Shown: positions 40 through 4,921, counted from the first letter of the stretch. The stretch is 64,000 nt of DNA from Candidatus Margulisiibacteriota bacterium (GCA_034723395.1 JAYEOW010000024.1:22205-86204), one strand, 5' to 3'. Notes: a model not told the origin generated them from the letters alone. A program made the numbers and translations.

Positions 40-1602
40 ATGTTATTTACGAACTCTTTATATTATAAAAAGTTGAAGGAGCTTGCCGGCTCCTCCAAGC
101 CAGACCGGCCTAAAGGCTTTGATGAAGCTTTCACCGTAAAAACCGAACATGCTTACTTTGACTTTTCCCGCCAGCTTGTCACCTCGGATGTCATGCAATC
201 GCTCTTTGAACTAGCCAAAGAAAGAAATTTAAAAGATAAGATTGAAGCCATGTTTAAGGGTGATAAAATCAACAAAACTGAAAACCGATCGGTTCTTCAT
301 GTTGCCCTGCGTAGTGGAGAAAATCCTGAGGTAGAGGCAGTCCTGGCCAAGATCAAATCCTTTTCCGAAGAAGTTCTATCTGGAAAGAGAACTGGCGCAA
401 CTGGCAAAAAGCTTAAAAATATTGTATCCATTGGCATTGGTGGATCCTATCTTGGACCCGAATACTTCGCGGTTGCCCTTCGGCCATACGCTCAAAAGGA
501 TATGAATCTTATCTTTGTAGCAAACGTTGACGGGACCGATTTTGCCGAAAAAACTGCCGGGTTAGATCCCGCAGAGACACTTATTATTATTGTTTCGAAA
601 ACCTTTACTACTGCAGAAACGATGTTAAATGCAGATACCGCAAAAAAATGGATTCTGGACGGATTAGAAAATCACCCCGAGGCCATAAAAAAACATTTTG
701 CCGCGGTTTCAACTGCCAAGGATAAAGTCAAAGCTTTTGGAATTGATGCAGAAAACATGTTCGGATTCTGGGATTGGGTCGGCGGACGTTTTAGCGCAAC
801 TTCAGCAGTTGGAGCGGTCCCGCTATCGCTTTATCTCGGATTTGATAATTTTAAAAAGATACTCGATGGCGCCAAGTGGATGGATGAGCACTTTAGAAAT
901 GTCCCTTTTGAACAAAATATACCGGTCATTTCGGCCTTAATAGATATCTGGAATATTAATTTCCTGGGATTAAAGACTCGCGCGCTGCTCCCCTATTCCC
1001 AAGGATTGGCAAAACTTCCCGCCCATACCCAACAGGTAGAGATGGAGAGCAATGGAAAACGGGTAGATCTGGAAGGAAATCCAATTGATTTTGATACGGG
1101 AGAGGTTGTTTTTGGAGAGCCGGGAACAAACGGACAACACTCTTTTTATCAATTGCTTCACCAGGGCGCCCAGATCATCCCCTCTGATTTCGTCGGCTTT
1201 ATTAAACCTCAGTATCAACTAGGTAAATCAACTGATAAAACAGTTACTCATCATCAGGAACTTATGACCAATTTTTTGGCACAACCTGACGCTTTAGCTT
1301 TCGGCAAAAAAGATTCCAACCCGGCAAAGGACTTCCCCGGCAACCGGCCTTCGAGTTCCATGCTATTAGAGGAGCTTAATCCGTTTACTGCTGGTCTCCT
1401 CCTTGCCTGGACCGAACATCGAGCCGCGACCAAAGGATTTATTTGGGGGATCAACAGTTTTGATCAGGAGGGGGTTCAGTTAGGTAAAGTTTTAGGTAAA
1501 GATCATCGAAGGAGAATGTTAGAGTTTAATTCATCTGGAAAAGTTGATGTTAAAGGATTAAGCCCATCGACCGCAGCCATGCTTAAGAGGATATTAGCTT
1601 AA
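40..1602 (+). CDS. pgi: glucose-6-phosphate isomerase
   Basis: Motifs IGIGGSYLGP, SKTFTTAET, FWDWVGGRFS, MESNGK, GTNGQHSFYQLLHQG, INSFDQ.GV.LGK. Start moved from 16 to ATG 40 because AGGAGG lies at 24-29. Confidence 0.97.
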   Translation: MLFTNSLYYKKLKELAGSSKPDRPKGFDEAFTVKTEHAYFDFSRQLVTSDVMQSLFELAKERNLKDKIEAMFKGDKINKTENRSVLHVALRSGENPEVEAVLAKIKSFSEEVLSGKRTGATGKKLKNIVSIGIGGSYLGPEYFAVALRPYAQKDMNLIFVANVDGTDFAEKTAGLDPAETLIIIVSKTFTTAETMLNADTAKKWILDGLENHPEAIKKHFAAVSTAKDKVKAFGIDAENMFGFWDWVGGRFSATSAVGAVPLSLYLGFDNFKKILDGAKWMDEHFRNVPFEQNIPVISALIDIWNINFLGLKTRALLPYSQGLAKLPAHTQQVEMESNGKRVDLEGNPIDFDTGEVVFGEPGTNGQHSFYQLLHQGAQIIPSDFVGFIKPQYQLGKSTDKTVTHHQELMTNFLAQPDALAFGKKDSNPAKDFPGNRPSSSMLLEELNPFTAGLLLAWTEHRAATKGFIWGINSFDQEGVQLGKVLGKDHRRRMLEFNSSGKVDVKGLSPSTAAMLKRILA

Positions 1603-1663
1603 TAAACTCGGCCTCCCCCTACGCTCTCCAAGCTCCGGGGGACATGTCGGAGATTATCTTCAG
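1583..1663 (-). pseudogene. relic ligA 3' end no. 1, interrupted by a 33-nt in-frame palindromic insertion
   Basis: Minus strand reads LKIIS[DMSPGAWRA*G]EAEFIKLISS*, versus intact LigA ...[13 protein letters not shown] and relic no. 2 [12 protein letters not shown]. Overlaps the pgi stop. Confidence 0.75.
1615..1646. repeat. short GC-rich hairpin repeat, CCYCC-TWCGCT..AG.T.CGGRGG type
   Basis: ccccc-tacgctctccaagctcc-ggggg-acatg aligns with the infB-internal copy cctcc-ttcgctaaagtttc-ggagg-gtaag at 8517-8541 (- strand). Confidence 0.6.
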
Positions 1664-1665
1664 GT

Positions 1666-1694
1666 TTCCCAAACATGCAGGAATACGCTATAAT
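1666..1694 (+). promoter_or_regulatory. putative sigma70 promoter, probably giving a leaderless transcript for the DUF5674 gene
   Basis: TTCCCA (1666-1671), 17 nt, TATAAT (1689-1694). ATG follows at 1702 with no Shine-Dalgarno in between. Confidence 0.5.
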
Positions 1695-1701
1695 AAGATT
1701 T

Positions 1702-2043
1702 ATGAAAATTGTTAGCAATCCGATAACACTACAAGAGATCAAGCAAATGGCCAAAAGTAAATTTGGCAACTTCGTTAAAGCAGTGGTAGACATCGAGCGT
1801 TCCTTAATTGTACTCGACGCTGAGCTGCATGCCGATGAGGAAGCTCTATTAATTGAAAACGGATCAAAATCTCATGATTTATGGGGTATAAACCTGTATC
1901 CCGATCTCCCATTTGAAGATTTCATTGAATACGATTCTATGATCAACCTTAAGCCTTCAGAGAACAATCGAAGTCGCGGGGTTGAAAGCCCTGAAATAAG
2001 GGAAAAAATAACCCAGATCGTAAGGAAGTTCATCAAACTATGA
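1702..2043 (+). CDS. DUF5674-like conserved protein
   Basis: KAVVDIER...AELHADEE.LLIENGS...LWGINLYP...IEYDSMINLKP..NNRSR, recognised from memory as the DUF5674 pattern. Start placed at ATG 1702. Confidence 0.75.
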   Translation: MKIVSNPITLQEIKQMAKSKFGNFVKAVVDIERSLIVLDAELHADEEALLIENGSKSHDLWGINLYPDLPFEDFIEYDSMINLKPSENNRSRGVESPEIREKITQIVRKFIKL

Positions 2044-2478: not shown

Positions 2479-2501
2479 TTGAAAGATGAATTCCCAGGGG
2501 G

Positions 2502-2574
2502 AACCACCCCTTCTGTCCCTCGACCCCTCGACAAGCTCGGGGCTCGGGACATCTTCCCCTTATAAGGGGGAAGA
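2502..2574. repeat. compound REP-like palindrome with a nested hairpin
   Basis: aaccacccc..[gtccctcga(cccctcgacaagctcgggg)ctcgggac]..tcttccccttataagggggaaga. Confidence 0.8.
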
Positions 2575-2820
2575 ACACGAATGCGCTGATATCTCTTTCT
2601 TGATTTGTTTAACAACAAGATCAATGTCTGAAAAGATCTCATCATTTGTACATCTGAAAACCCGAATTCCAATACTTTCGAATATCCTTTGGCGCTCCTG
2701 ATCATAGATCTTTTGGTCTTCATCAAGATGATATCCACCATCAACTTCAATTGCCAATTTTAATTCGGGCGAGTAAAAATCAATCACAAAACCGCCAATA
2801 CTGTTGTCATGTCTTAATAT
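2560..2820 (-). pseudogene. DUF559 / Vsr-like endonuclease, N-terminally truncated
   Basis: SIGGFVIDFYSPELKLAIEVDGGYH...YDQERQ...GIRVFRCTN is the DUF559 core. The usual N-terminal helix and the KFRRQ motif are missing, and an in-frame stop lies just upstream. Confidence 0.75.
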
Positions 2821-2829
2821 AAATAATAG

Positions 2830-2959
2830 TCTCCCCCTTTATAAGGGGGAGATAAAGAGGGGGTCGTTATACTCAAAACCTTCCTTTCCTTTATAAGGGG
2901 GAGATTTAGAGGGGGTTGTTGGAACCACCCTCCCCTCACGATATCAGAGGGGGTCGTTA
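2830..2959. repeat. cluster of REP-like palindromes CCCCCTTTATAAGGGGGAGA...AGAGGGGGT
   Basis: Copies at 2830-2869 and about 2884-2916, plus a tail copy at 2940-2959 (gatatcagagggggtcgtta) that contains the ligA stop codon. Confidence 0.8.
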
Positions 2960-4921
2960 GAGAAACTTCAAGAACTCTTCCTCAGAAATAATCTTAACAC
3001 CCAATTTCTTTGCCTTATCATACTTCGACCCCGGTTCATGCCCCACCACCACATAATCCGTCTGTTTTGATACTGAGGAAGAAGAATGTCCGCCCAATTT
3101 TCTAACCATTTCTTCCGCGTCGGATCTACTAATTTTATCTAAACCGCCGGTAAAGACAAAGGTCTTTCCCTTTAACGGTTGAGGTCCTTTGGCCTTAGCA
3201 GTTTTTACCTTTACCCCTGCTTTTTTAAGTCGTTCGATAATTTGATGATTTTCTTTTAAAGAGAAGAATTCGGCTAGTGATTCTGCCACTTTTGGACCGA
3301 TCCCCGCGATCTTCTCAAGATCTTCTGCTTTAATATTAAATAGATCTTCTAAGTTATCATATTGTTCCGCGATCAAGGAAGCGATATGTGAACCTACTAA
3401 GCGGATCCCAAGAGAGAATAATAATCGGTCATGCGGTCGGTCTTTGCTCCCCTGGATCGAATCGATCGTATTCTGGGCCGATTTGTCTGCCATCCGCTCA
3501 AGCTTCTTAATATCCTCTTTCTTAAGATCGTAGAGATCAGCAACATTCTTAATATATTTCTTCTCCACTAGCTGATCGATCAGCGCGGGACCGACACCCT
3601 CAATATCCATCGCCCCGCGCATGGTGAATAGAATAATGCGGCCCTTAACTTGGTTTGGACAGCTCGCGTTAACACAGCGCGCAACTGCTTCCCCTTCGGG
3701 ACGAACAATTTTCTCACCACAAACTGGACAAACCTTTGGCATATGGAACTCTTTTTCCTTACCAGTCCGTTTATCCTTAACCACTTCTACAACTTCCGGA
3801 ATAACTTCCCCTGCCCGCTGAACCCTTACATGATCCTTGATCTTAATTCCTTTACGCCTGATCTCATCTTCATTGTGCAACGTGGCGCGTTTAACGACTA
3901 CACCAGCCAAATGAACCGGTTTTAAATGTGCAACCGGAGTAATCGCTCCAGTTCTTCCAACCTGAACCTTAATGTCTTCAATAATTGATTCCGCCTGCAT
4001 TGGTGGATACTTAAAAGCGATCGCCCAGCGCGGATGGTGGCCGGTAGCTCCTAACTTCTTGTGATCAGCTAAATCGTTAAGCTTAACAACTATTCCATCT
4101 ATTTCATAATCTAGTTTTTCGCGCTTCTTATCCCACTCTTTAATATATTTCTTAACCTCTTCGATGCCATTGCACATTTTATTATTCGGATTGGTTTTGA
4201 AACCCAGCTTGCCCACGTATTTTAATATCTCGTAATGGGTTTTTAATTTGGGAACATCACCGTAATAAAGGAATATATCCAGCGGCCGCGAAGCTGTAAT
4301 TTTAGAATCAAGCTGTCGAAGTGATCCAGCAGCAGCATTACGAGGGTTGGCAAATAGAGATTCTCCACTCTCCTGGCGGACTTCGTTAAACTTTACAAAA
4401 TCATCATATGGCAGGTATACTTCACCGCGAACCTCAATATCTACCGGATCAGACAAAGTTAATGGAATTGAGCGAATAGTCTTTAGATTCTGGGTAATAT
4501 CCTCCCCACGGCTCCCATCGCCACGCGTGGCTCCTACTTCAAACTTTCCTTTCTTGTACTGCAGGGAAACCGCCAGCCCATCCATCTTTAGTTCGCATAC
4601 ATATTCGATTTTATCTGCGCCTAATCCTTTTCGAACCCTTTCATCAAACTCTTCCAACCCTTCTATATTCATCGCGTTATCAAGGGATAATAAGGGAGCT
4701 TTGTGATAGTAAGGTTTAAATGATTTAAGTGGCATTCCTCCTACTCGCTGAGTAGGAGAATCAGGGATGATCAGGGATGGATTTTTCTTTTCCAGTTCTT
4801 TTAGTTCGCTGAAAAGTTTGTCATATTCACGGTCAGAGATCTCCGGTTTATCCAGAACATAGTAGAGATAATCGTGGTGGTTGATCAGTTTTCGTAGTTT
4901 ATTGATTCTATCTTTACTCAC
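2957..4921 (-). CDS. ligA: NAD-dependent DNA ligase
   Basis: ELKMDG adenylation motif, [20 protein letters not shown]4 zinc finger, HhH repeats, BRCT domain. Confidence 0.98.

Follow-up and report, generated by a model that had tools for sequence, protein, structure and literature searches.

Three ligA 3′ ends and two kinds of cassette between ligA and pgi in a Candidatus Margulisiibacteriota genome: a possible join of two versions of one gene junction

In the genome of a Candidatus Margulisiibacteriota bacterium, the genes ligA (minus strand, encoding NAD-dependent DNA ligase) and pgi (plus strand) are convergent, and between them lie two additional ligA 3′ ends, both in the orientation of ligA, together with cassette DNA of two kinds. 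The junction is near the start of a 64,000-nt stretch (GCA_034723395.1, JAYEOW010000024.1:22205-86204), which we refer to as “the window”; all coordinates are counted from its first letter. The genome that carries the window (G000) was binned from a metagenome (55 contigs, 2.4% contamination), and has one pgi and one ligA body. We use C-numbers for contigs of G000, and L-numbers for other loci or contigs that were compared. An earlier note, made from the sequence alone, described the three ligA ends as a record of serial gene-tail replacement, in which incoming DNA twice recombined into ligA, each time supplying a new functional C-terminus plus cargo and pushing the old tail away. Here, we describe the features of the junction, what related genomes have in its place, and how the arrangement may have arisen. 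The features, in order along the window, are as follows.

16-1602, plus strand: pgi, 528 aa, with a short end (..MLKRILA, stop); Pfam PGI match (E 7.4e-180) and C-terminal alignment with relatives.
1583-1663, minus strand: outer ligA tail relic, reading LKIIS, a 33-nt insert, then EAEFIKLISS and stop; repeat match, with 1597-1615 plus 1649-1664 as the duplicated part.
1597-1615 plus 1649-1664, no strand: left copy of a putative 35-nt target duplication, split by the 33-nt insert.
1616-1648, no strand: GC-rich, hairpin-like insert of 33 nt that splits the outer tail; coordinates from alignment.
1702-2043, plus strand: DUF5674 gene; Pfam E 8.2e-37 and an alignment of 29 sequences.
2040-2366, plus strand: partner gene, 108 aa, a predicted five-helix bundle without a family, conserved next to DUF5674.
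2361-2395, no strand: right copy of the putative 35-nt target duplication, identical to the left copy at 30 of 35 nt.
2367-2478, minus strand: middle ligA tail relic, with intact frame and without a start or upstream gene body; repeat and protein matches.
2479-2499, plus strand: relic of a long-form pgi tail, LKDEFPG, adjoining the cassette 3′ end as in L067.
2500-2920, minus strand: decayed DUF559 (Vsr-like nuclease) cassette; Pfam E 3.9e-14, a sibling on C46, and repeats.
2921-2956, minus strand: 36-nt mini element right after the live ligA stop, cassette-like at both ends.
2957-3082, minus strand: live ligA tail, the end of intact ligA.
2957-4921, minus strand: ligA, 654 aa, intact, with all ligase domains (Pfam) and 86% identity to L067/L068.

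The three ligA 3′ ends are real and share the same orientation: repeat and protein searches both find them, and they are reproduced in a contig from sequencing run X1. The BRCT domain of ligA occupies residues 580-652 (Pfam), and the repeat search matched 2369-2478 in the middle tail to 2973-3082 in the live tail (110 nt, 77% identity); a whole-genome protein search recovered the middle tail separately (E 1.6e-13). As the earlier note reported, 32 of 37 residues are identical in the SSSVSKQ..EF stretch, and many of the nucleotide differences are synonymous. Indeed, 42 aligned codons have 17 synonymous and 10 non-synonymous codon differences, with 37 of 126 nt differing. The middle tail had been placed at 2344-2478; it is ligA sequence as far as ~2367, but the remaining 23 nt (2344-2366) correspond to the opposite strand of the partner gene end (..FNFAARA, stop), and belong to the cargo rather than to ligA because the C-terminal end of the partner is conserved (..YFLAFN(Y/F)AAR). 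The outer tail overlaps the pgi stop, as described: the last two pgi codons, GCT TAA (1597-1602), are within the duplicated ligA-tail sequence, in the left copy of the 35-nt duplication, and bases 1583-1596 double as pgi coding sequence on the opposite strand. The position of the outer tail is the exact place of the ligA end in relatives. The similarity between the 33-nt insert that splits it and the 3′ hairpin of the DUF559 cassette is weak, its score being equaled in 56 of 2000 shuffles; a related motif, CCCCGAGCTTGTCGAGGGG, has six exact copies in the genome. Scans of the region against Rfam (nothing near gathering score) and for tRNAs were blank.

The codon alignment proposed in the earlier note separates the live and middle tails widely. 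Over 40 codons, there are 19.5 synonymous differences at 27.3 sites and 11.5 non-synonymous differences at 92.7 sites (pS 0.71, pN 0.12, Fisher p 7e-9), i.e., synonymous sites are saturated, and the longest identical run is 11 nt. A second tail could also arise if the ligA tail were duplicated in tandem and the copies then diverged. Perfect in-place duplications do occur beside such cassettes: of 37 DUF559 loci tested, a single one, L237, has a tail repeat, a 91-nt duplicate without a mismatch (91/91 nt) of the tail of an amidotransferase-like gene that flanks another DUF559 cassette. For the live/middle pair, however, neutral drift of one copy after in-place duplication predicts ~63–67% non-synonymous differences, and only 12 of 31 are observed (p 0.005–0.001); given this rejection of a single neutral copy, the synonymous saturation, and the low pN, we consider tandem duplication exceedingly improbable for this pair. 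Because the non-synonymous share is far under the neutral expectation, both tails appear to have been part of a functional ligA during most of the time since they separated. The values of pS and pN therefore point to divergence under purifying selection in two diverged ligA genes, and not to local duplication. One tail is of foreign origin, and seems to have come by transfer from a relative approximately as distant as another genus: the live/middle nucleotide identity of 0.77 equals that between the live tail and its counterpart in L067 (ligA overall, 0.773). In a tail-only comparison with 104 other tails, L067 was not among the 15 nearest to the middle tail, all of which have ≥0.69 identity. 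The genome-wide scan for gene-tail duplicates that the earlier note had suggested covered 1535 open reading frame (ORF)-genes at E ≤0.001; ligA was the only clear case of an orphan C-terminal duplicate within 6 kb, with a few weaker or N-terminal cases beside it.

The middle and outer tails have a different relationship. The two 35-nt copies differ little and bracket a two-gene module. This pair is evidently a target duplication around the inserted module, and an in-place duplication is possible for these 35 nt. The first gene of the module, which the earlier note had called a DUF5674 gene pair, is indeed DUF5674; the second gene has no Pfam family, but is a conserved partner. The likely DUF5674 start is the ATG at 1702 (MKIV..), in an ORF that is open from 1675, with a TATAAT box just upstream. 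The partner start overlaps the DUF5674 stop, and its last codon and stop (GCC TAA) are in the right copy of the duplication. Following insertion of the module, the ligA frame runs on into the antisense of the partner gene, which contradicts the claim that this event supplied ligA with a new C-terminus.

The module is widespread. DUF5674 is found in 34 of the 65 genomes of the class, and both genes are present in all 28 class loci of this type, with 51–69% identity. Its neighbors vary between genomes (dapF, argB, gltX, fmt/def, tsaD, and others), and none of the 28 module loci is next to ligA. A scan of one genome per species found at least 585 relatives of DUF5674 with 54–68% identity, under record titles that include Omnitrophota, Margulisiibacteriota/Saganbacteria, Patescibacteria, Planctomycetes, Proteobacteria, and an archaeon. 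A search of viral, phage, and plasmid sequences, in which DUF5674 occurs in two viral contigs, no phage records, and 33 plasmid records, did not reveal a carrier element. The plasmid records (L275 and 32 others) are all cyanobacterial, almost all from Nostocales; identity is 38–43% in the ten records listed, and one examined record has the overlapping two-gene layout. G000 itself has a distant DUF5674 paralogue at C33:6055-6369 (36% identity), with an in-frame TAA and no partner gene detected.

Target duplications recur around the module, and do so more often than around shifted controls. For each locus, 260 nt upstream of the module were compared with 280 nt downstream, and the match was scored against shuffles. 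Flank repeats beat all 100 shuffles in 4 of 27 class relatives, in addition to the window. For loci from many phyla, 12 of 72 beat all 200 shuffles, as compared to 5 of 119 shifted controls (2 of 61 to the left, 3 of 58 to the right); three of the 12 are also in the class set. A score of at least 20 was reached by 8 of 72 module loci and 1 of 119 controls. The repeats range from 16 to 88 nt, and the repeated pieces include the tails of genes for an ABC ATPase (L147), dapF (L042), a radical-SAM protein (L044), and a small gene (L039), as well as the 3′ end of tRNA-Asn (L060, the same locus as L187), 58 nt following tRNA-Thr (L218), the head of tyrS (L189), and most of a small ORF (L226). At seven of the 12 loci, the start of the right copy lies 6–12 nt past the AAR codons of the partner gene. 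On the question of whether the repeats are allelic or decayed in place, the differences between copies point in no single direction: all four in the ligA part are synonymous in the window, as are three of four in L042, and most are non-synonymous in L039. Eight relatives were examined for an empty site corresponding to L042; in these, dapF is followed by another co-directional gene, and no matching empty site was found.

Comparison of the module proteins to Pfam, NCBIfam, and PADLOC found nothing but DUF5674, i.e., no recombinase, restriction-modification (R-M), or defense family. Invariant residues of the DUF5674 protein include D39, H52, D54, E56, W70, N73, and R101. Structure models of the two proteins have pLDDT values of 83 and 90, and Foldseek found no match to either in the PDB at E ≤0.001. 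The best Z-score for the DUF5674 model in VIA-align was 3.6, which is not proof of a new fold, and a literature search on the word “DUF5674” returned no match. One could imagine that DUF5674 and its partner are a new mini mobile element of ~0.75 kb, with its own promoter and a right end just after ..AAR, that inserts into gene and tRNA ends across phyla with long, variable target duplications, the insertion activity being supplied or recruited by one or both proteins; taken as a whole, we consider this proposal unlikely. A close parallel among known systems is the insertion of R-M units with long target duplications (PMC2853133). In the parts of that account on which we draw, the units resemble the module in being small, lacking a transposase or integrase, and lying between direct repeats, tens of bases long, of a sequence present once in the empty site. 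These repeats vary in length and often take in the 3′ end of a gene, and the same kind of unit recurs at different targets. The differences are that the cargo here is DUF5674 and its partner (or a DUF559 cassette in L237), and that several of the repeats here have diverged.

On the other side of the middle tail, the sequence at 2479-2499 (LKDEFPG) resembles the end of pgi in L067 (LKGKLPG, stop), with 16 of 24 nt matching and 2 of 2000 shuffles reaching the score. The same stretch was tried as ligA sequence and rejected (its score is equaled in 213 of 2000 shuffles). In the live pgi, ..MLKRIL is followed by a final A and a stop that the duplicated ligA-tail sequence provides; in most relatives, pgi runs on as ..L.G.LPG, stop. 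The joint between 2478 and 2479 is the exact point at which the long and short pgi ends diverge. Here, the pgi-tail relic meets approximately codon 608 of ligA, and the two sides of the joint have no sequence in common; the junction is clearly illegitimate. Since the pgi body ends short and a long-tail relic follows, the 882 nt between them (1597-2478) appear to be a block of another version of the junction. The position of the pgi-tail relic, between the cassette and the middle tail, therefore suggests that the live/middle pair came from an unequal join of two junction versions. We infer that the second crossover must lie in homologous sequence.

It is conceivable that the joint is an artifact, with contigs of two co-occurring strains or species assembled as a chimera. 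The genome is a metagenome bin with some contamination, and run X1 contains a second ligA-tail variant: a 195-nt contig with a depth of 7, as compared to 14.8, that has 11 differences over 104 nt from the window (2973-3076). The variant presumably comes from a related strain or species present in the run. Against a chimera, a separate build from X1 has a single 22,076-nt contig that spans positions 1-5000 of the window with no differences and no gaps; between 1500 and 3100, no alternative joint is listed. X1 is possibly the source sample, such that this match is not independent data, and it is contigs rather than raw reads that were compared. Furthermore, nothing is shared across the joint on which an assembler could switch, and there are single copies of the ligA body and pgi in the genome. 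Runs X2 and X3 yielded only short, diverged pieces. We regard misassembly, which the earlier note had named as one case that would overturn its account, as very unlikely.

Between the joint and ligA is the DUF559 cassette, a relic with palindromes as the earlier note stated. The Pfam match spans only positions 45-108 of the 109 in the profile, and the ORF is shortened (2560-2787); a PADLOC “homing endonuclease” model also matches (1.7e-6). The recognizable parts are two 5′ units (2835-2920), palindromes at 2551-2574 and 2830-2853, and a 3′ hairpin with a GGGGTGGTTCC end. A full-length sibling at C46:19931-20305 has the two 5′ units, the palindromes, and a 3′ hairpin with a ..GACAGAAGGGGT end in common with it. 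The adjacent mini element begins like the cassette 5′ unit (CGACCCCCTCT) and ends GGTGGTTCC, like the cassette 3′ end; it has an 11-nt exact match (2 of 2000 shuffles), and its repeat takes in the ligA stop codon. Cassette ends without an ORF, i.e., a 5′ unit and a 3′ end, are also found at C43:24069-24207, C46:15175-15365 (with three tandem 5′ units), and C40:42133, and look like miniature derivatives. Upstream of ligA, a GC-rich hairpin at 4925-4990 (CCCTCTCCACTTTGTGGAGAGGG..) lies between truB and ligA and provides the last codons of the truB ORF (..PSPLCGEGGPSR, stop). It may be a solo cassette remnant; a DUF559 gene occupies the truB/ligA position in L067, L019, and L024. GC-rich nested hairpins, e.g., CCCTCTCC..GGAGAGGG, flank several DUF559 genes in G000. 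In this general character, they recall the G/C-rich intrastrand triplex-motif or BoxC-type repeats, for which an association with genomic instability is reported (Holder et al. 2015, PMC4666352), and to which they may be related.

The ligA/pgi junction in relatives, another comparison proposed in the earlier note, includes both empty junctions and variable cargo. In L004, L008, and L011, no spacer separates ligA from pgi, whose stop codons are adjacent or overlapping (gap of −3 to 0 nt), and there is a single ligA tail. In L017, L019, and L022, other cargo of 425–640 nt separates the two genes; L017 and L019 have related coiled-coil ORFs (~120 aa, with D/K/H repeats) following a GC-rich hairpin, a third kind of cargo at this junction. 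Of the 29 relatives' loci compared, none has a second ligA tail within 1.5 kb. The nearest metagenome relatives, L067 and L068 (86% identity for ligA, 83% for truB, and 81.5% for pgi), have the layout ligA, DUF559 cassette, pgi, with both stops inside the cassette ends, and have neither the module nor a second tail. A DUF559 cassette likewise follows ligA in L070 (76%).

L070 and L069 offer a comparison with and without the cassette. They are identical over ~1000 nt of ligA and 127 nt downstream, apart from the cassette region. There, L070 has a ~510-nt DUF559 cassette at the end of ligA, with 11 differences in ~70 nt to its left and six in ~15 nt to its right, and a short repeat, GGTTAA, preserves the overlapping end of the downstream gene. 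This looks like gain of a cassette by recombination or homing, with converted flanks, in what is a single pair of metagenome contigs. Further upstream, the two ligA genes have 100% identity over the 3′ two thirds and 59–69% over the first 750 nt, which reflects either further mosaicism of ligA or a chimeric contig. The seg and mob genes of phage T4 are reportedly free-standing homing endonuclease genes with co-conversion of their flanks. Published examples cover the T4 genes and flank co-conversion (PMC2790892) and I-Bth0305I, a Vsr-like “EDxHD” homing endonuclease (PMC3239194). As far as the sections of these sources cited here go, the resemblance is in the Vsr-like nuclease of DUF559, the single site that holds a cassette in L070 and none in L069, and the clustered flank differences on both sides. 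By contrast, the DUF559 cassettes described here are known from sequence alone, their hairpin or palindrome ends and ORF-less miniature forms are more transposon-like, and the copy in the window is truncated.

Taken together, these features suggest that the junction is a recombinant of two cassette-occupied versions, with one resident and the other imported. Version A would have the live ligA tail, the mini element, the hairpin-bounded DUF559 cassette, and a long pgi tail, as in L067/L068. Version B would come from a relative approximately as diverged as another genus, in which the overlapping ends of ligA and pgi had already received the module, with a 35-nt duplication that gave rise to the middle and outer tails. 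Version B DNA may then have entered a version A genome and paired within pgi, up to the end of pgi likeness, while its far end, at approximately ligA codon 608, was joined illegitimately at 2478/2479. This would be homology-facilitated illegitimate recombination. The live tail would be the resident one, and the middle and outer tails would be passengers that never served ligA in G000. We give this reading, with version A as resident and B as import, an even chance. The live tail is favored as resident because L067/L068 share the layout, and because the joint is at the edge of pgi homology, where an import anchored in pgi would be expected to stop. The live tail is also no more diverged from L067 than ligA as a whole. 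In trees of the 5′ part of ligA, G000 and L067 are sisters (support 100/100), as they are in trees of the 3′ part (88/87). As for how the DNA might have been taken up, G000 has homologues of comEC and dprA, genes that are also found in species not known to transform.

Several observations weigh against version A as the resident. No donor tract is visible in pgi, where G000 is nearest to L067 in most windows of the alignment, including the last. The outer tail sits beside a resident-looking pgi, and yet seems nearer to the middle tail (30/35 nt) than to the live tail. In L069/L070, the cassette apparently arrives with a foreign ligA tail, which is the opposite direction. Identity of ligA between G000 and L067 falls from 0.89 (columns 1–500) to 0.77 (columns 501–662), which could be due to replacement of the 3′ part in G000. 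Version B on its own was found in no genome, and the absence of ligA from the neighbors of the 28 class module loci is a further point of this kind. The assembly, for its part, is backed by contigs alone, possibly those of the source sample. Tests of the direction of import, using sliding and windowed identities (ligA, pgi, and truB), tail identities, and 5′ and 3′ ligA trees, gave no decisive breakpoint.

The order favored in the earlier note is the reverse: version B was resident, with a ligA that carried the middle tail (and, at a still earlier stage, the outer tail) and was followed by the module, the outer relic, and pgi. Version A DNA would then have recombined in ligA, bringing in its tail (the live one), its cassette, and 22 nt from its own pgi end, before joining illegitimately at codon 608 of the resident ligA and pushing the old tail away. 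Such an order accommodates the cassettes of L069/L070 that enter with a foreign ligA tail, the fall in ligA identity over the last 160 columns, and a pgi without a visible donor tract, and it explains the closeness of the outer tail to the middle tail equally well. However, it requires the coincidence of a donor fragment that ends at the very codon where the resident pgi leaves the long form. It also puts the illegitimate joint 40 codons inside ligA homology rather than at an edge, makes the cassette position shared with the nearest relatives an independent occurrence, and has to allow for a 3′ ligA tree that still pairs G000 with L067, albeit weakly. We therefore find this order doubtful, and the rule that the newest tail is the one nearest the gene is not established; the L067/L068 layout and the position of the joint favor the live tail as resident.

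When e14 or phage 21 integrates into icd, or an island into a tRNA or tmRNA gene, the 3′ end of the target gene is replaced. Two such site-specific integrations at the ligA 3′ end, followed by deletion of the integrase genes and most of the islands, would likewise leave the gene intact with displaced 3′ fragments beyond the inserted DNA. The classic scar that this process leaves is a set of displaced 3′ ends that share one orientation, and one module locus (L060) does duplicate the 3′ end of a tRNA gene. An integrase and an identical core define the class, however, and neither was found here (serine recombinases were not searched). As the earlier note had stated for the window, the contig has no tyrosine recombinase of PF00589; G000 has three matches, each of them on a different contig from this one. 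No recombinase match was found in the cargo among Pfam, NCBIfam, and PADLOC models, the 11-nt run common to the live and middle tails leaves no shared core, and the module repeats vary in length at unrelated targets. Independent decay would also have to leave the same two genes many times. We consider integrase-mediated insertion highly improbable. The alternative in the earlier note, homology-anchored capture without an integrase, is supported as a mechanism by the illegitimate joint and by the L069/L070 cassette with its foreign ligA stretch.

The junction recalls loci at which gene 3′ ends are known to be displaced, namely, rhs genes (Jackson et al. 2009, PMC2935791) and Vibrio cholerae type VI secretion system (T6SS) effector genes, where sequential displacement occurs by homology-facilitated illegitimate recombination (Kirchberger et al. 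2017, PMC5361080). As described in the excerpts of these studies considered here, the common features are stacked orphan 3′ ends in the same orientation, and a homologous anchor combined with an illegitimate joint in the absence of an integrase. Those loci, however, encode polymorphic toxins whose tips differ in function and bring immunity genes. In the present case, the gene is a housekeeping ligase with orthologous BRCT tails, the cargo consists of selfish cassettes, and the tails may be passengers.

Two further loci in G000 have cargo beside gene ends. At C15:5915-8823, a two-gene pair lies between a gene on the minus strand (5915-7183) and a 34-residue relic of the head of that gene (8258-8359, 71% identity). 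Judged by eye, the pair encodes a putative HEPN-like protein of 149 aa and a putative nucleotidyltransferase-like protein of 185 aa with a helix-turn-helix, and two 119-aa paralogues bracket the stretch. At C43:4666-8444, a 440-aa ATPase-like ORF (4843-6165) lies between a short relic (4666-4810) and a gene (6495-8444), with the relic consisting of head and tail pieces of that gene. Here, too, cargo adjoins a gene end that has been duplicated.

The behavior of the module is the newest part of these findings, and the rest is a variant of known processes. The uncharacterized DUF5674 pair gains a behavior, being bounded by target duplications more often than control segments are, and DUF559 hairpin cassettes are likewise given one, since they appear to be gained at the ligA end with conversion-like flanks. 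Stacked tails call for caution: they may be imported passengers and not former resident ends, such that “nearest is newest” should not be assumed. More broadly, a single 1.5-kb stretch shows how streamlined genomes, in which gene ends abut or overlap, take in foreign DNA. Cargo at such junctions survives only when the gene end is duplicated or replaced, and the leftover ends record the events.

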